A stretch of 21,583 nucleotides of DNA from a virus. The notes beneath the pieces are model-generated. The model was not told the DNA's origin. It made no database searches and worked only from the letters and a program-made list of their open reading frames with translations. The translations under genes were made by a program, and so were the position numbers. Of this stretch, positions 10,701 through 20,013 are shown in pieces; the first letter of the stretch is position 1, and every line of letters starts with the position of its first letter. The stretch is from UHGV virus genome UHGV-0131581. One strand, given 5' to 3'.

Positions 10701-11402
10701 ATGAATCGTTTTTTACGTTATCCGTTCCAGGAAGAAGCTGGGGTAGAAGATAAAGCTGGTGGCGGTGACGCGCCGAAAATGTTCACCGCTGAAGAAGTTC
10801 AGGTGCTGATTGAGAAAGAAGTTGCCGGGCTTAAGGCCAATCAGGAAGCATTGCTGGCGGAGAAGAAAGAAGCCGCTCGCAAAGCAAAAGAAGCCGAAGA
10901 AGAACGGCAGCGCGCGCATCAGGAGGCGTTAAAAGCCGCTGGTAAGATGGACGAGTTCGAAAAAACGATTCGTAGCCAGTATGACCCGGTGCTAGCCGAG
11001 AAAGATGGTCGCATCTCCAGAATGGCGGAGCGCATCCTCGGCAGCGAACGTAAAGCGGTGCTAGGCTCTTTCGCGGGCGACTTTATTACCCCGGAAGCGG
11101 TGGACATTCTTGCACCGTTCGTTAGGACTGAGTTTGAAGGCGATGATGTGGTTACTAAGTTTGTTGGTGCAGACGGTAACGTAATCACGACTGACCCTGA
11201 ACAGTTCCGCAAATACCTGCGCGAACACAAAGCGTTTTCGCATTTGATTAAAGCAAATGCAGCTTCCGGCGGCGGGGCTTCCGGTGGCAAAGGCGGCGGG
11301 GCCGCACCAGCGTTTAAAGACATGAGTGAATCGGAGCGTTTGGCTCTGTATAAATCGAACCCTGCCGAATTTGAACGGCAACTTAAAGCCCTGAGGAAAT
11401 AA
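10701..11402 (+). CDS. Scaffolding protein (putative)
   Basis: Acidic, Ala/Glu/Lys-rich coiled-coil protein directly upstream of the major capsid gene; ATG 10701 preferred over the track's TTG 10647. Confidence 0.55.
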   Translation: MNRFLRYPFQEEAGVEDKAGGGDAPKMFTAEEVQVLIEKEVAGLKANQEALLAEKKEAARKAKEAEEERQRAHQEALKAAGKMDEFEKTIRSQYDPVLAEKDGRISRMAERILGSERKAVLGSFAGDFITPEAVDILAPFVRTEFEGDDVVTKFVGADGNVITTDPEQFRKYLREHKAFSHLIKANAASGGGASGGKGGGAAPAFKDMSESERLALYKSNPAEFERQLKALRK

Positions 11403-11404
11403 TA

Positions 11405-12454
11405 ATGGCAATTACCACTATCGGCGATATCGTAACTGGCAACATCCCGGTCCTTGCGTCTTATATGACAGAGGACCCGGTAGAAAAAACCGCGTTCTTC
11501 CAGTCTGGTATTCTTACCCCGACTCCATACGCTGCCGAGATTGCCCGAGGCCCGTCCAACGTCGCTAATATTCCTTTCTGGAAAGCGATTGACACCTCTA
11601 TCGAGCCTAACTACTCGAACGACGTATACCAGGACATCGCTACCCCGCGTAATGTGCAGACCGGTGAGATGATGGCGCGCGTTGCGTACCTGAACGAAGG
11701 CTTTGGCCAGGCAGACCTGACGGTTGAACTGACCAGCGAGAATCCGCTGCAATCCGTGGCTTCTCGTCTTGATAACTTCTGGCAGCGCCAGGCACAACGT
11801 CGTCTTATTGCTACCGCGCTCGGTCTGTACAACGACAACGTAGCCGCTACCGATGCTTACCACGAGCAGAACGACATGGTTATCGACGTGTCTGCTACTC
11901 TGGGCTTTGACGCAGGCGCATTCATCGACGCTACCCAGACTATGGGTGATGCGCTGATGGACAACGGCGGTGAAGTGCTGGGCGCTATTGCGATGCACAG
12001 CTTCGTTTATGCTCAGGCGCGTAAGCAGCAGCTTATCGACTTCATCAAAGACGCCGACAACGACACCCTGTTCGCCACCTACCAGGGTTACCGTGTGATT
12101 GTTGATGACAGCATGACCGTGGTCGGAACTGGCCCGAGCCGCAAGTTCATCTCTATCATCTTCGGCAACGGTGCTATCGGTTACGGTGAAGGCAATCCGT
12201 CTAACCCGCTGGAATACGAGCGTGAAGCGTCTCGTGGTAACGGTGGTGGCGTTGAAACCCTGTGGACCCGCAAGACTTGGTTGCTGCATCCTCTGGGCTA
12301 CAGCTTCACCAGCGCGGTAATCACCGGTAACGGCACCGAGACTACCCCACGCTCTGCCTCCTGGCAGGACCTGGCGAACGCCTCCAACTGGAACCGCGTG
12401 GTTGACCGTAAGCACGTACCGATTGCCTTCCTGGTAACTGGTGTAGGTGCTTAA
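11405..12454 (+). CDS. Major capsid protein
   Basis: 349-aa protein immediately after the scaffold gene and followed by a strong terminator, the usual high-expression capsid arrangement. Assigned by synteny. Confidence 0.7.
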   Translation: MAITTIGDIVTGNIPVLASYMTEDPVEKTAFFQSGILTPTPYAAEIARGPSNVANIPFWKAIDTSIEPNYSNDVYQDIATPRNVQTGEMMARVAYLNEGFGQADLTVELTSENPLQSVASRLDNFWQRQAQRRLIATALGLYNDNVAATDAYHEQNDMVIDVSATLGFDAGAFIDATQTMGDALMDNGGEVLGAIAMHSFVYAQARKQQLIDFIKDADNDTLFATYQGYRVIVDDSMTVVGTGPSRKFISIIFGNGAIGYGEGNPSNPLEYEREASRGNGGGVETLWTRKTWLLHPLGYSFTSAVITGNGTETTPRSASWQDLANASNWNRVVDRKHVPIAFLVTGVGA

Positions 12455-12470
12455 GGTTAAGTTATAATCG

Positions 12471-12494
12471 AGAGGGACTTCGGTCCCTCTTTTC
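12471..12494 (+). terminator. Rho-independent terminator after the major capsid gene
   Basis: AGAGGGAC (12471-12478), loop TTCG, GTCCCTCT (12483-12490), then TTTC. Confidence 0.75.
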
Positions 12495-12513
12495 ATTTAC
12501 TAAGAGGTAAATT

Positions 12514-15232: not shown

Positions 15233-15645
15233 TGGGCTACTTTGAGGACTTAACAAAAGCGTTTGATGTTCCGCTGGTAGCCTTCGGAAACACCAACGGC
15301 ATCAAGGTTGCGCTTGAAAATATCGACGCGCCGACGTCTACCGATACACCGTATCTGGCGAGTTACATGTTGCTGGCGGATACCGAGCAGGCGGATTTGT
15401 TCTTCACAGAACAACGCGCTGGTGTCTATCAGGTCGACATTAACTACGCATCGGTGAAGGGTAGCGCGCCAATCAATAAAATGGCAGACTTACTTAACAC
15501 GGCGTTTAAAGCAGGTAAGTCATTTTCACGTAACGACATCTGCGCCGAGGTTCAATCGGTTAGCCTGGGGCCGCTGATTGTAGAAAACGGATGGGCCAAA
15601 CGACCATTGTCAATTAACTTTATTGCATTCACCAAGAGGCTGTGA
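15229..15645 (+). CDS. Putative tail terminator protein
   Basis: 138-aa protein immediately upstream of and coupled to the major tail protein gene. Position-based. Confidence 0.35.
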   Translation: MMGYFEDLTKAFDVPLVAFGNTNGIKVALENIDAPTSTDTPYLASYMLLADTEQADLFFTEQRAGVYQVDINYASVKGSAPINKMADLLNTAFKAGKSFSRNDICAEVQSVSLGPLIVENGWAKRPLSINFIAFTKRL

Positions 15646-16814
15646 ATATGGCTACAACTCCTTTTAAGGGCGCGAATACCGCGCAATTCTATGTGGCGGA
15701 AGTGACCCCGGGCGTAACACCTGATAACCCGGTCTGGTCGCCGTTGCGCAACACAGGCGGTGTTCCCGCCGTTACCCGCGACACGCTGGCCTCCAACGAA
15801 CTGGACGGCAGCCGTGAAACTACATCCATCCGCACCGGTAACAGGCAGGTTAGCGGGGAATACGCAATTGAGCTTAGCTCGAAAAGCCAGGACGACTGGC
15901 TGGCTGGCGCTTTAGGCTCTACGTGGCAGTCAGGGGCTTCTCTGTCAGGGTTATCGATTACCGTTGCACCGGCGGGTAAGACGTTCACCCGTGCTGATGG
16001 TAGCTTTATTACCGACGGCGTTGAAGTGGGCGACCTGATTGCGTTTACCGACTTAACGGGCGACAACGCTAAGCCGTTTATCGTTACTGCGGTAGAGGCA
16101 CTGGCGGTAACAGGTGCAGGTATCCAGCACACTCTTACCGCGGAGACTGTCACTACCGCGGCCAAAACTGGAGATAAACTGGAAACCGGTAACCAATGTA
16201 AGACGTTCTCTATTCTCACCTGGTACAAAGGCCAGTGCGGAGGGGCCAGTGTATATACGCTGACCAAAGGCGTTGAAGTTTCGGGTTTTACCGTTGAACA
16301 GGCAGTTAATGCGATGGTAACTGGCAGCTTCCCGTTCATCGGTCGCAGTCAGGAGATTCTCACCGAGCAGCCGTCCGGTTCCGACTTCTCTTCCGTTACG
16401 TTTGGTGACGAGCCGTTCTCCTCGGTTGACGTTTCTGTGTTCGATGGGTCTACGCCGTTGCGTTGCGACAGTCTGACCATCACTAACGACAACAGCGCGT
16501 CCGCACAGTTCGAACTCGGCAACACTAACGTGGCCTTTGTGGAACGTAGCCGCGCAGCTAACACATTCTCTATCTCCGGCAAACTGTACGACATGGCTAT
16601 GATTCAGAAGTTTATCAACGAACAGCAGGTAGAGATTAACTCTATTCTGGCTGGGGTAAACGGTGCTATGTCTTTCAGTTTGAAACGCGCAGAGCTTACG
16701 GCGGTTACGCCAGAGATTGGCGGACCTGAGTCAATCACTCAGTCCATTGAAGGACAGTCCACAGGCAATCAATATCAATCATCTATCGTAATTCAACGTA
16801 TTAGTTACGCGTAA
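15642..16814 (+). CDS. Major tail protein
   Basis: 390-aa Thr/Ser/Gly-rich protein preceding the chaperone and tape-measure genes and followed by a strong terminator. Synteny-based. Confidence 0.6.
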   Translation: MNMATTPFKGANTAQFYVAEVTPGVTPDNPVWSPLRNTGGVPAVTRDTLASNELDGSRETTSIRTGNRQVSGEYAIELSSKSQDDWLAGALGSTWQSGASLSGLSITVAPAGKTFTRADGSFITDGVEVGDLIAFTDLTGDNAKPFIVTAVEALAVTGAGIQHTLTAETVTTAAKTGDKLETGNQCKTFSILTWYKGQCGGASVYTLTKGVEVSGFTVEQAVNAMVTGSFPFIGRSQEILTEQPSGSDFSSVTFGDEPFSSVDVSVFDGSTPLRCDSLTITNDNSASAQFELGNTNVAFVERSRAANTFSISGKLYDMAMIQKFINEQQVEINSILAGVNGAMSFSLKRAELTAVTPEIGGPESITQSIEGQSTGNQYQSSIVIQRISYA

Positions 16815-16816
16815 GG

Positions 16817-16840
16817 AAAAGGCCCCGAAAGGGGCCTTTT
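16817..16840. terminator. Bidirectional rho-independent terminator between convergent genes
   Basis: AAAAGGCCCC-GAAA-GGGGCCTTTT: a GC stem with GNRA-type loop flanked by A-run and T-run, so it can terminate from either direction. Confidence 0.8.
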
Positions 16841-16841
16841 C

Positions 16842-17072
16842 TTACTCATCAATATTGCTTCGGTATTCCCGCAACTTCTCCAGACTTTCAATTGCTTCTG
16901 CTAAGTCGGTTACGGTGTCCTTGTGCCCACGTAAACCCATGCACAATAGCTTCTTCAATGCGTGCTGTAACGCCGGGTCGCGGATGTCGAAGGCGCGCAG
17001 CACATCGTAAACGTCTACGGTCATAGTGCTGCCGTGAGTGTTTGTCATTGTGCGGTTGTATTTTGAAGTCAT
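16842..17072 (-). CDS. Small hypothetical protein (76 aa)
   Basis: Minus-strand ORF ATGA-coupled to the HNH gene; contains DVYDVLRAFDIRDPALQHALKKLL. I do not recognise the family with certainty. Confidence 0.5.
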   Translation of the reverse strand: MTSKYNRTMTNTHGSTMTVDVYDVLRAFDIRDPALQHALKKLLCMGLRGHKDTVTDLAEAIESLEKLREYRSNIDE

Positions 17073-17542
17073 TTTCCGTGCCTCTCAGTAAAGTCTTTCT
17101 TTTCTTTGTAAAAACATTCTGCATATCTCACGGCGTCTTCTTTTTGGTCAAAACGCTTGGCTATCCTATTCCCGTTATATTGAATTTGAACGACCCATTT
17201 ACCGTTATATGTTTTACTAACCCCGGTAACACCAGACGAGTTATCCCTGCGCTTTGCTGCATTTTTGCAGTTTATGTGCCGGTCGCACAGTCGAAGATTC
17301 TCTATACGGTTATCGCTTTTCACACCGTTTATATGGTCAATCTCCTTGCCTTCTGGTATAGCTCCGTTAAACATTTCCCATATAATTCTGTGGGCGAATG
17401 TCATTTTTGATCCTAGTTTAGTTCTTACATATCCGCGGTGGTCAACGTACCCTACTTTACGTCCTTTCGGGTACTTAGGGTTTACGCTGTCCTTAGCGTA
17501 AAGATTCCCGTTTTCGTATTCGTAAACGTTATTCCATGTCAA
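17069..17542 (-). CDS. HNH homing endonuclease with AP2-type DNA-binding domain
   Basis: YVDHRGYVR ... IDHINGVKSDNRIENLRLCDRHINCKN (HNH_3-type core) followed by SGVTGVSKTYNGKWVVQIQYNGNRIAKRFDQKEDAVRYAECFY (AP2-like). Confidence 0.85.
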   Translation of the reverse strand: MTWNNVYEYENGNLYAKDSVNPKYPKGRKVGYVDHRGYVRTKLGSKMTFAHRIIWEMFNGAIPEGKEIDHINGVKSDNRIENLRLCDRHINCKNAAKRRDNSSGVTGVSKTYNGKWVVQIQYNGNRIAKRFDQKEDAVRYAECFYKEKKDFTERHGK

Positions 17543-18678
17543 TTTATACCCCCTATCATTTCTGGTGATATTGTGAGGCGTGCCACCTCCCCATATTCTG
17601 CACTATATGTTATCACGTTAGCACTACGGCCAGACATCCAACCCCCTCGCGATGCGTAAGCATCTTTCGCCGCCAGGGTGCGGTGCTGTTCGACTACCAT
17701 ATTACGGCTCTCTACTAGTTTCTGATGATGTAGATGGCCTACATGGGCGTAACTGTATGTGCTTTCACCGAAAGCCTTACGGAATTTAGAAATCATTACT
17801 GACTCTATGGCATCGAATCTCGCACGGTGTCCGTGGTGCATGAACAGCGTAGTTTTTCCATGCTGAACCATCTTGTATACGTCGGGGGAGGTGTCCACAA
17901 ATACGCGAGGTTCGTTGTCATACAATGTGCAGAACATTTCGGCAAGCCATACGGAGCCGACAGGGTCGTGGTTACCTTGGACGATTAAAAGTTTGACTGT
18001 GTGATGTTTAACCAGAGCCATATCAACAACACGGCGTACCATACGAATCATGTAGCGGACCAGTTTCTGATAGCGCGTATCCGCGTCTAACACATGACGT
18101 GACTCAGGTGTAACGGCATCCAGACTATCGAAGTGCGCGAAATCCCCCAGCAGGTTAATAACTCCTGTTCCTGCGTCCGGCGCTTTCTGAAACGCCGCGT
18201 CGAACCATCGAGAGAACAGGTCTTCCGCGATTTTCATATCCCAGTCGTCGCCGCTCTCGTCGGCCCAGGCCAGCATACCGAGATGGAAGTCAGATACCGT
18301 GTAAAGATTGAGTAGTTTATCGTCACGTTTGGCCCGAACGGCTTTAACAGGCGCAACCGGCGTAATCTCTGACTTCATGCCCTCAATTACGGCTTTCATC
18401 AACTCAACCTGACGTTCGGCATCGGTGTCTGTCTTAACCCATTGCAACTTAGTGTTGCCGAACTCGTCTACCAGTGACGACGTCCCTTTAATCTTGTAAC
18501 CGTCTGGTACAAGGTGGCTAACGTCACGCCCGTGGCCCACACCTTTCTTTGCCAGCTTCGCTTTACGGATACGAATAACTCGGTCTGAGATGCCGTATTT
18601 ACGGGCTATATCTATATTCTTCACCCCGGCGTTCAATTCTTCCTGTAATTGTTCGTCGGTTATTTTCTTCCGGGCCAT
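17539..18678 (-). CDS. HTH domain fused to calcineurin-like metallophosphoesterase (379 aa)
   Basis: N-terminal ~45 aa HTH-like (ITDEQLQEELNAGVKNIDIARKYGISDRVIRIRKAKL). Phosphoesterase motifs in order: SDFHLG (D-x-H), LLGDFAHFD (GD..D), VQGNHDP (GNHD), FMHHGH, HVGHLHH (GHxH). GAGGAAG RBS. Confidence 0.75.
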   Translation of the reverse strand: MARKKITDEQLQEELNAGVKNIDIARKYGISDRVIRIRKAKLAKKGVGHGRDVSHLVPDGYKIKGTSSLVDEFGNTKLQWVKTDTDAERQVELMKAVIEGMKSEITPVAPVKAVRAKRDDKLLNLYTVSDFHLGMLAWADESGDDWDMKIAEDLFSRWFDAAFQKAPDAGTGVINLLGDFAHFDSLDAVTPESRHVLDADTRYQKLVRYMIRMVRRVVDMALVKHHTVKLLIVQGNHDPVGSVWLAEMFCTLYDNEPRVFVDTSPDVYKMVQHGKTTLFMHHGHRARFDAIESVMISKFRKAFGESTYSYAHVGHLHHQKLVESRNMVVEQHRTLAAKDAYASRGGWMSGRSANVITYSAEYGEVARLTISPEMIGGIN

Positions 18679-18743
18679 GCTTACTTCCTCGTGTTTAGGA
18701 TTTGTCCTATTTAACCACAGTGCATTCCTTTAAATAAAGGCGA

Positions 18744-19070
18744 CTATTTACTTTCCACGCCTATCGCCCATCCAGTCATTACCATTTGCAGACGAGTAGC
18801 TGTTAGTAGGCTGTAAAACGCGTCCCCGTTTTTCTCTACCGAACGTATTACCGAGTATGTTACGGCTTGTGCAGGTAGACCTGATTTACCAACCTCTACG
18901 GCAGCCTCACATTCACGAACTGTAGAGTCCTTAAATGCCTTTACAATAGTAGGGTCGGCTTTTTCAAGCACGCCAGAAGTCATAAGAACAGACTCACTAA
19001 ATACCTGTTCGCACGGAGACCCAAAAGCGGCAAAAGACATAAACCCCAGAGCTAATACTAATTTACGCAT
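18744..19070 (-). CDS. Secreted/periplasmic hypothetical protein (108 aa, N-terminal signal peptide)
   Basis: MRKLVLALGFMSFAAFGS: basic N-terminus plus hydrophobic core, no lipobox; GAGGAA RBS; first gene of the minus-strand operon. Confidence 0.5.
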   Translation of the reverse strand: MRKLVLALGFMSFAAFGSPCEQVFSESVLMTSGVLEKADPTIVKAFKDSTVRECEAAVEVGKSGLPAQAVTYSVIRSVEKNGDAFYSLLTATRLQMVMTGWAIGVESK

Positions 19071-19234: not shown

Positions 19235-19651
19235 ATGAAACTTTCTGATTTCTATTTTGCGGACCGCCATGCTGTAGGCACTAAAATGCCTATCCTTCTG
19301 CCGAGTGGTAAAGACTCCGGTGAATGGCTGCAGGTCATCGGCCCTGATTGTGACGCGGGTGTTCGTGCGGGCCGCGCCTACACAACGGCAATTCGACGCC
19401 TTACGGAAGAACTTGCGCCATTAGATAAAGAGTGCGAGGCGCTGAATAACTGGGCACGTTATAACGATGAGAAGGGCTGGCGGGTGATGGACCTGAACAA
19501 GCAGCTTGCCGTGGAAATCGTCACCGGTTGGTCATTCGACGAACCGTTCAGCAAAGAGGCGCTGGCTAACCTGTTTGACCAGTACAGCGGGTTGGCAGAA
19601 GCCGTAGTTAAGCACCACACCGATAGCCGCGAGAAACTCTCGGAAAAGTAA
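19235..19651 (+). CDS. Tail assembly chaperone (G-like)
   Basis: 138-aa acidic protein in the conserved slot upstream of the tape measure gene, with an overlapping -1 frame ORF downstream. Confidence 0.55.
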   Translation: MKLSDFYFADRHAVGTKMPILLPSGKDSGEWLQVIGPDCDAGVRAGRAYTTAIRRLTEELAPLDKECEALNNWARYNDEKGWRVMDLNKQLAVEIVTGWSFDEPFSKEALANLFDQYSGLAEAVVKHHTDSREKLSEK

Positions 19652-20013
19652 AAGCGCTGTATGAATTTGCGCAATGGTGTTTTGTTGACCGTCACAAACG
19701 TAAGCAATTTGACGACATCGCGGCAGGCCACCAGGCGGCTTTGATTGCAATGGGCGTGATTAAAGAACCGCAGATGAAAGAAACGACGGGGCCAGAATGC
19801 CCCGTTTCTCTTATCGACGTGTTCGAGAAATACCGTGCCATTAAATTCCTACAGCGCGAAACAGATGATACTATCGTTATAATCCCGCGCGATGCGCTCA
19901 AATGGCAAGATTTGGTAGCGTTTCGTGATGTCGCCGGTTACGGCATAAGTTTGTTCGAAGCCGAGGTTATCATGGGCTTAGACGGAATATTTGAGGGCAG
20001 AGAAGATGGCTGA
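19627..20013 (+). CDS. Probable -1 frameshift extension of the tail assembly chaperone (GT-like product)
   Basis: The -1 frame is open from 19627 to TGA 20011-20013, overlaps the zero-frame stop (19649-19651), and ends 8 nt into the tape measure gene. Candidate slip at GGAAAAG (19642-19648). Confidence 0.4.
   Translation, partial: PRETLGKVKALYEFAQWCFVDRHKRKQFDDIAAGHQAALIAMGVIKEPQMKETTGPECPVSLIDVFEKYRAIKFLQRETDDTIVIIPRDALKWQDLVAFRDVAGYGISLFEAEVIMGLDGIFEGREDG

Follow-up and report, generated by a model that had tools for sequence, protein, structure and literature searches.

The stretch of viral DNA analysed here, 21,583 nucleotides of UHGV virus genome UHGV-0131581 and referred to below as the window, carries on its minus strand a gene whose product of 379 residues combines an N-terminal helix-turn-helix (HTH) with a metallophosphoesterase (MPE) core. 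We propose, with a probability of roughly one half, that this protein, called HTH-MPE hereafter, is an HTH-guided stand-alone DNase acting on host or foreign DNA. DNA is the suggested substrate because the predicted fold is nearest to those of SbcD, Mre11 and DP1, because the two histidines required by the P. putida MPE to cut DNA are kept, and because a putative DNA-binding domain is fused to the enzyme. The gene and its parts are the following:

17539..18678, minus strand: complete HTH-MPE coding sequence, 379 residues, from the list of open reading frames (ORFs); ATG start, stop codon at 17539-17541
18684..18690, minus strand: Shine-Dalgarno-like GAGGAAG, 5 nt 5' of the HTH-MPE ATG, by direct sequence reading
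18541..18678, minus strand: predicted N-terminal HTH, residues 1-46, pI 10.3, with a basic third helix RVIRIRKAKLAKKG, from AlphaFold2 helices and family-level profile matches
18325..18540, minus strand: family-specific connector, residues 47-118, comprising a conserved β-hairpin with the invariant W80 (PDG..VKG.S.L...G...QWVK), then a long helix and a variable linker
17542..18324, minus strand: binuclear MPE core, residues 119-379, motifs I-V, containing the conserved low-confidence loop 186-200 (VTPxSxHxLDAD)

Catalytic core, N-terminal domain and family

The five MPE motifs were read from the sequence in canonical order, as S-D130-F-H132-L-G (motif I), G178-D179-F-A-H182-F-D184, i.e. GDxxHxD (motif II), G235-N-H-D238 (motif III), H281-H282-G-H284 (motif IV) and G314-H-L-H317 (motif V), and the set of metal ligands is complete (D130/H132, D179, N236/H237, H282 and H315/H317). 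Conservation was assessed in an alignment of 42 homologues (30-50% identity). The fully conserved columns are W80, D130, H132, G134, G178, D179, T190, N236, H237, H282, G314 and H317, and H182, which follows D179 by three residues, is kept in 98-100% of the aligned homologues. Judged from these columns, the catalytic machinery is intact and under strong purifying selection. The protein scored below the Pfam gathering score for both Metallophos_2 (22.3 bits, cut-off 27) and Metallophos (18.4 bits, cut-off 21.5), and a few homologues exceed the gathering score of a Pfam MPE model (e.g. P0128, 25.1 bits); these sub-threshold scores are indicative of a divergent clade.

The AlphaFold2 model, built on 114 sequences, had a predicted local distance difference test (pLDDT) value of 84.5 and a predicted template modelling (pTM) score of 0.72. 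It comprises three N-terminal helices (8-16, 21-28 and 32-44), a β-hairpin (61-85, with strands 61-70 and 76-85), a helix (87-103), the variable linker and the core (119-375), which shows the β-sandwich fold of MPEs. The sole stretch with a pLDDT below 50 is the strictly conserved loop 186-200, and this combination would fit folding induced by a substrate or a partner. A basic helix spans residues 201-224.

The N-terminal domain is predicted to bind DNA as an HTH of the LuxR/GerE or sigma-70 region 4 type. The query itself gave a sub-threshold Pfam match to GerE only (E 0.055), and the N-termini of its homologues matched Sigma70_r4_2 (1.5e-9), GerE (2.4e-8), HTH_8 (2.6e-7), HTH_23, HTH_28, HTH_1 and others. 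The top PDB sequence matches of the family profile were the HTHs of GerE, DesR and NarL, aligned to GerE residues 10-60. In every one of the 42 aligned homologues a segment of 43-100 residues precedes the PDG..VKG.STLY..DG...QWVK block. This segment is poorly conserved in sequence across the family, with the HTH pattern retained, and in homologues whose N-terminus is longer the same MPE core is joined to an HTH of another type or to two HTHs. The exchange of HTH types on one MPE core points to a nucleic-acid target.

The original prediction, which had been made from the letters of the sequence, described an ORF at 17539-18678 with an ordered MPE motif set preceded by an HTH. Both parts were confirmed, the first by all five motifs on the minus strand and the second by the three helices of the AlphaFold2 model together with the family-level HTH profile matches. 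Its motif set stands, but motif II, given there as GD..D, is GDxxHxD, and the core comprises ~260 residues instead of ~300.

HTH-MPE matched the family PHROG 704, labelled 'DNA repair exonuclease', over its full length (residues 4-375 against profile positions 2-389 of 390, E 5.8e-162). The DNA around the gene shares 86-89% identity with the genomes of E. coli Kagunaviruses (K1G-like Guernseyvirinae), Bas71 among them, and the protein is 93-98% identical to Kagunavirus proteins. ST16, the orthologue in phage T1, shows 44% identity across all 377 residues, including the HTH (E 3e-110). Homologues were detected by tblastn in 2,013 of 50,697 phage records (~4%), 1,957 of which cover at least 80% of the length; they occur in Kagunavirus, Jerseyvirus, T1-like Drexlerviridae, Klebsiella Webervirus, and Vibrio, Ruegeria/Rhodobacter and other phages. 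When 1.84 billion cluster representatives were scanned exhaustively with HMMER, 4,514 clusters at 50% identity matched, 1,139 of them at E <=1e-30 and nearly all of 370-420 residues, and near-identical copies of the gene are deposited in hundreds of phage genomes. The HTH + MPE architecture was the same in all 42 diverse members that were compared. As this is the standard architecture of PHROG 704, found also in T1 ST16 and in ~2,000 deposited phage genomes, it is not new, contrary to the original remark that it was not recognized. On this evidence the gene is an ordinary member of a very large phage family that has been catalogued for ~20 years.

The database names of the homologues conflict, ranging from DNA repair exonuclease, phosphatase, phosphoesterase and kinase-phosphatase to oxidoreductase, Mur ligase and hypothetical protein. 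Phage RTP rtp61 and T1 ST16, which belong to the same family, are named 'DNA repair exonuclease' / 'putative phosphoesterase', and a close homologue is called 'Nuclease MPE' in one database record. The name given to PHROG 704 derives solely from homology. A search of NCBIfam with HTH-MPE gave no meaningful match, the PADLOC models at E <=0.1 matched neither HTH-MPE nor its two cassette neighbours, and the Calcineurin-CE models did not match HTH-MPE. The main text of the phage escaper paper mentions no phosphatase or metallo-enzyme for SECphi18, the carrier of a 73% homologue.

The reverse-strand cassette and gene neighbourhoods in other phages

HTH-MPE lies in a short reverse cassette between the tail tube gene (15642-16814, plus strand) and the tail-chaperone genes (from 19235, plus strand). 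The other elements of the cassette are:

18744..19070, minus strand: first cassette gene, 108 residues, signal-peptide-like N-terminus (MRKLVLALGFMSFAAFG), PHROG 14165; orthologue in the same position in Bas71
17069..17542, minus strand: HNH homing endonuclease gene, 157 residues (PF13392, 2.5e-21; PHROG 99)
16842..17072, minus strand: last cassette gene, 76 residues; translationally coupled to the MPE gene via an ATGA overlap in HNH-less relatives
16817..16840, no strand assigned: perfect, GC-rich hairpin AAAAGGCCCC-GAAA-GGGGCCTTTT flanked by A/T tracts, from the sequence and a self-complementary BLAST hit

Comparison with Bas71 showed that the HNH gene is an insertion of ~484 bp (~17073-17556) exactly at the ATGA stop/start overlap of the MPE gene and the gene for the 76-residue protein, and that both translational overlaps were recreated by it. 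As a result of this insertion HTH-MPE is 3 residues longer at its C-terminus. The insertion is missing from Bas71 and most Kagunaviruses and the GC content of the HNH gene is 0.415, against 0.517 for the window; the HNH gene does not belong to the ancestral cassette. The 108-residue protein could be a secreted or periplasmic moron, e.g. a superinfection-exclusion factor. The 76-residue protein matched only the C-terminal ~70 residues of PHROGs of 180-250 residues (2452, 17613 'ATPase', 13223 and others) and seems to represent, on its own, a domain that other phages encode as part of a larger fusion protein. A fragment of a T7 gp1.7-like kinase and a relative of the dNMP-kinase-like protein (dNMP, deoxynucleoside monophosphate) of ACG-M12 were considered for it and rejected, as no similarity to either was found. 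The hairpin sits between the convergent stops of the tail tube gene (16814) and the last cassette gene (16842) and probably serves as an intrinsic terminator in both directions, at which the cassette transcript would end; the consensus scanner made no call there. A small, separately terminated reverse cassette inside a tail operon is a placement typical of accessory genes.

The gene occupies this reverse cassette of the tail module in Guernseyvirinae, whereas in T1-like phages it lies beside lysis or early genes. Lysis genes adjoin it in T1, ACG-M12, two metagenomic phages and a Vibrio phage. Among the other phage records (cited by L numbers), it is found near PhoH, DnaB, primase and ligase genes in L004, near SSB and PolA in L019, and near a nin-like region in L005, where it takes a Q-like position between that region and the terminase genes. 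A homologue in a Vibrio phage is near SSB and a deoxyribosyltransferase-like gene, and genes for a NinB/RecA-dependent nuclease and a dGTP-diphosphohydrolase-like protein are also found among the neighbours of homologues. In the T1-like phage ACG-M12 the gene is near a dNMP-kinase-like gene and a gene for a Dmp-family HAD phosphatase (PHROG 415), the latter two genes away. A T1-like gene product named 'polynucleotide kinase' (L003:7780-8253) is a HAD phosphatase (PF25109) of the same PHROG 415 as T5 Dmp (L007:124-858); its product name is probably wrong, since it has no kinase domain and shares this PHROG with the dNMP 5'-phosphatase Dmp.

An HNH gene is located directly 3' of HTH-MPE in the phage of the window, in ACG-M12 and in a Vibrio phage, and by gene order the HNH gene ST15 directly follows ST16 in phage T1. 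The loci with an HNH gene after the MPE gene are 17069-17542 of the window, L003:7209-7703, L002:7241-7750 and L018:42028-42510. The HNH genes of the first three phages named are homologous (35-39% identity, E 1e-15 to 1e-30), and their MPEs are 30-44% identical. Either one homing-endonuclease lineage tracks the HTH-MPE family, or the two genes are functionally linked.

Two further features of the window were noted. The tail assembly chaperone pair at 19235-20013 (plus strand) consists of an ORF at 19235-19651 and a -1 frame to 20013, both matching PHROG 15027 (positions 1-138 and 170-259), and the end of the first frame, ...CGGAAAAGTAA, points to programmed -1 frameshifting on GAAAAG. An ORF of 525 residues at 10919-12496 (minus strand) is antisense to, and spans, an ORF of 349 residues at 11405-12454 (plus strand). 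Synteny with Bas71 suggests that the latter encodes the major head protein, and the 525-residue ORF in all likelihood reflects codon composition and does not code for a protein.

Type of metallophosphoesterase and candidate activities

A Foldseek search of the PDB with the predicted structure returned as top hits the PolD DP1 exonuclease, Rv0805 (rank 2), purple acid phosphatase and Mre11, all with E ~1e-7, and the hits of the BFVD fold search were all uncharacterized MPEs of phages, some of which bear the name 'DNA polymerase II small subunit'. HTH-MPE was ranked by fold against named nuclease and non-nuclease MPE structures. The values were 14.2 for S. aureus SbcD, 14.0 for both the MJ0936 phosphodiesterase and Mre11, 13.9 for DP1, 13.5 for the Pol δ B-subunit, 13.0 for E. 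coli SbcD, 11.6 for Rv0805, 9.3 for the P. putida MPE and 9.0 for the PPP phosphatase PP5. According to these values HTH-MPE represents a distinct clade, nearest to the nuclease branch by a thin margin and far from the protein phosphatases. The identity to SbcD, Mre11 and DP1 is 12-17%, and the margin over the non-nuclease MPEs is negligible.

A nuclease of the SbcD/Mre11 type was one of three activities put forward in the original prediction, and it is the best supported of the three by the fold ranking and the nuclease-type histidines; membership in that family did not hold. SbcD and Mre11 have a capping domain after the core, whereas HTH-MPE ends with its core, and they work with an SbcC/Rad50 partner, of which HTH-MPE has none. 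No SbcC/Rad50 gene is annotated in the complete genome of Bas71, in T1, or beside the homologues at L002-L005 and L019-L021. HTH-MPE is therefore not an SbcD/Mre11 family member, since it has neither this partner nor room for the capping domain. The polymerase-subunit context of PolD DP1 is absent too, and the N-terminal HTH and hairpin of HTH-MPE are in turn absent from the SbcD/Mre11/DP1 families.

A parallel at the level of residues is offered by the P. putida MPE (PDB 6NVO), a Mn-dependent single-stranded DNA (ssDNA) endonuclease in which two histidines, H81 (at +3 from the bridging Asp78) and H113 (of the pair N112-H113), are essential for ssDNA cleavage and dispensable for bis-pNPP hydrolysis (PMC7826289). 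Their counterparts in HTH-MPE are H182, with the 98-100% conservation given above, and the invariant H237. Both enzymes are solitary and have an identical metal-ligand arrangement, but the P. putida MPE is a single domain of ~200 residues encoded together with an Lhr helicase, a description that HTH-MPE does not fit. The retention of H182 and H237 is consistent with a nucleic-acid substrate, without proving it.

According to the mechanism that we propose, the basic N-terminal HTH would tether the enzyme to DNA, and the two-metal phosphodiesterase core, probably with Mn2+, would cleave the DNA backbone without the help of an ATPase partner. The attack would be directed early in infection at host or competing DNA and might serve host shut-off, nucleotide scavenging or counter-defence. 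This role is suggested because of the analogy with T5 A1 and the mycobacteriophage protein Gp48, described in the last section; the assignment of host or competing DNA as the early-infection target is the weakest step of the proposal and is put forward tentatively.

Several observations weigh against the proposal. The PDB profile matches of the HTH-MPE family to nucleases were marginal (E ~0.24). The histidine at motif II Asp+3 is lacking in T5 A1 and in Bxb1 gp47, and E. coli SbcD has an Asp at this position, so that a His there is not universal in nucleases. The profile-profile comparison by hhalign of the HTH-MPE family with the A1 family, the latter represented by an alignment of eight diverse phages, gave a probability of 45% (E 2e-4) over 31 columns centred on motif III (NHD..S..WL). 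Synteny of the MPE with Dmp, considered as a general rule, was rejected, as the Dmp-like gene ST64 of T1 lies ~12 kb from ST16; because the adjacency is not kept in T1, this pairing is reduced to a weak hint. In the phage of the window HTH-MPE is located in the tail module, away from the replication genes, and a promoter scan of the cassette gave nothing above shuffled expectation. Finally, no experimental, biochemical or genetic work on any member of the PHROG 704 / HTH-MPE family was found in full-text searches of the literature.

Among the alternatives, a minimal Mre11/SbcD-like nuclease that acts on replication, recombination or repair intermediates of the phage's own DNA would agree with the label of PHROG 704, with the fold neighbours SbcD, Mre11 and DP1, with the position of the gene beside SSB, DNA polymerase, helicase, primase and ligase genes in several phages, and with the abnormal DNA replication of gp48-deleted mycobacteriophage A10ZJ24 in M. 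tuberculosis (PMC12287305). We nevertheless consider it unlikely, in view of the missing SbcC/Rad50 ATPase in Bas71 and beside the homologues examined, the lack of room for a cap, and the replication operon of Guernseyvirinae, which already has an exonuclease, a Gp2.5-like annealing protein and a resolvase, whereas HTH-MPE lies in a separate, accessory-type cassette. A phosphodiesterase or nucleotidase for small molecules, whose task would be to break down immune signals made of cyclic (oligo)nucleotides or to reshape nucleotide pools, is less probable still. An enzyme degrading nucleotide signals had been another of the activities originally suggested, and the second rank of Rv0805, which like CpdA is a class III cyclic-nucleotide phosphodiesterase, in the Foldseek search keeps this reading alive, as might some of the neighbours (Dmp-like HAD, dNMP-kinase-like, deoxyribosyltransferase-like and dGTP-diphosphohydrolase-like genes), but nothing positive was found for the signal-degrading version. 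A soluble small-molecule enzyme would have no obvious use for an HTH that is universally kept and exchanged between types, the nuclease-type histidines of HTH-MPE are invariant, and the PADLOC and Calcineurin-CE models did not match. To our knowledge, none of the known anti-CBASS, anti-Pycsar and anti-type III phosphodiesterases is an MPE, which also counts against it.

HTH-MPE might instead act mainly as a transcription factor whose HTH controls late genes, lysis genes or its own cassette, with the MPE as an accessory or sensor module. The sigma-70 region 4 and LuxR-type HTH matches, a weak match of the N-terminus to PHROG 836 'late transcriptional activator' (E 0.006), the nearby lysis genes in T1, ACG-M12, the two metagenomic phages and the Vibrio phage, the Q-like position in L005 and the interaction of T5 A1 with RNA polymerase would all suit such a regulator. 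However, the catalytic residues are all invariant over more than 4,000 clusters, which indicates selection on enzymatic activity, and in the phage of the window the gene is not near the lysis genes, gene position being weak evidence in any case; we regard a regulatory role as very improbable. The least probable of the alternatives is a PPP-type (lambda-PPase / NinI) protein phosphatase acting on Ser/Thr/Tyr, the third activity of the original prediction. It would belong to the same superfamily, and some records do say 'phosphatase' or 'kinase-phosphatase', but in place of the PPP motifs GDxHG, GDxVDRG and GNHE HTH-MPE has SDFHLG, GDFAHFD and GNHD, the hhalign probability against a NinI-like phosphatase was 1%, and L005 carries both a NinI-like phosphatase and an HTH-MPE, so that the two are not interchangeable. 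Neither of the outcomes that the original prediction had named as contradicting it was observed: the N-terminus is predicted to have a DNA-binding fold, and the protein did not match a well-characterized phage phosphatase family.

Comparison with phage metallophosphoesterase DNases

The HTH-guided DNase proposed here has its best functional analogues in T5 A1 and the MPEs of cluster A mycobacteriophages, which are possibly also distant kin. T5 A1, a predicted metallophosphatase, is reported to be necessary and sufficient for degradation of the host chromosome, acts alongside A2, a distinct protein that binds DNA, and alongside Dmp, a dNMP phosphatase, and has RNA polymerase as a further interactor (bioRxiv 10.64898/2026.04.02.716235). 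Like HTH-MPE, A1 (PHROG 1745, 'DNA transfer protein') is a solitary phage MPE without an SbcC partner, and in both proteins motif III is extended to NHD-x4-WL and the C-terminal tails are alike. A1 differs in being ~180 residues longer, with an extra middle domain, and in its motif II, which is HDVHD as against GDFAHFD. The hhalign probabilities between A1 and HTH-MPE, from single-sequence and profile-profile comparisons, were 20-45% around motif III. In a permissive alignment motifs III-V and the C-terminal tail were collinear, which adds no statistical weight. No cross-match was found between PHROGs 704 and 1745, either for HTH-MPE against 1745 or for T5 A1 against 704. A1 is thus treated as an analogue and not as a relative, and A2 was rejected as a homologue of the HTH domain, with no similarity found.

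One protein of the A1 family, that of Caulobacter phage CcrPW (L010:1285-3069), which starts ...LAELVNKIGGQRAFSRKYGVPRSTLQLRLAKAAEGG, has an N-terminal HTH similar to that of HTH-MPE (BLASTP E 2e-4, hhalign E 4e-4); the similarity is limited to this member. The A1-family protein of Vibrio phage 249E41-1 (L008:1288-2922) is annotated 'homeodomain-like'. With an N-terminal HTH in some A1-family members, the HTH-MPE fusion recurs in a second phage family.

The cluster A protein Gp48 of A10ZJ24 is expressed early, fragments host DNA when expressed, and in purified form degrades linear, plasmid and genomic DNA; without gp48, the replication of the phage DNA is abnormal, as mentioned above (PMC12287305). 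The cluster A MPEs (Gp48, Bxb1 gp47) stand alone as HTH-MPE does, but they have ~255 residues and neither an HTH nor the hairpin/helix connector, and their motifs I (D-x-Q) and II (GDVLD) differ from those of HTH-MPE. The hhalign comparison with HTH-MPE covered motifs III-V (E 2e-3, 88 columns) with a probability of 13%. Their GNHD-x4-YL extension parallels the NHD-x4-WL of HTH-MPE. Bxb1 gp47, according to its record annotation, also acts as an integrase directionality factor, and nothing suggests such a role for HTH-MPE. The extended motif III, NHD-x4-[WY]-L, is located at residues 235-246 of HTH-MPE, 395-405 of T5 A1 (L007) and 91-101 of Bxb1 gp47 (L015), and the C-terminal tail, D..Y..GG/A..W...T-hydrophobic, is similar in HTH-MPE, T5 A1 and the cluster A MPEs. 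Together, the extended motif and the tail may be the mark of a phage-specific MPE clade. As the homology to T5 A1 and Gp48 is weak, no membership in either family is claimed.

The gene itself is routine, and the remaining interest lies in a functional hypothesis for an abundant family, which is among the more widespread phage enzyme families lacking an experimental function and is found in the classic phage T1 as well as in many therapeutic phages of Salmonella, E. coli and Klebsiella. If HTH-MPE is truly a nuclease that degrades host DNA or targets DNA, this would explain host shut-off by these phages, bear on the transduction risk of therapeutic phages, and make T5 A1 and the mycobacteriophage Gp48 parts of one broader class. 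In T5, A1 is paired with a DNA-binding protein and Dmp, and ACG-M12 has a Dmp-family gene near its HTH-MPE. In its widest and more doubtful form, the hypothesis would make the HTH-MPE family (PHROG 704, with T1 ST16) the single-polypeptide counterpart of T5 A2 + A1, that is, a partner-free, DNA-guided DNase of T1-like phages, Jersey/K1G-like phages, Webervirus and many marine siphoviruses, which would destroy or selectively cut DNA of the host or of rival elements with a specificity set by a fast-evolving, exchangeable HTH and would form, with A1 and the cluster A MPEs, one phage-specific 'host-attack' clade marked by NHD-x4-[WY]L.

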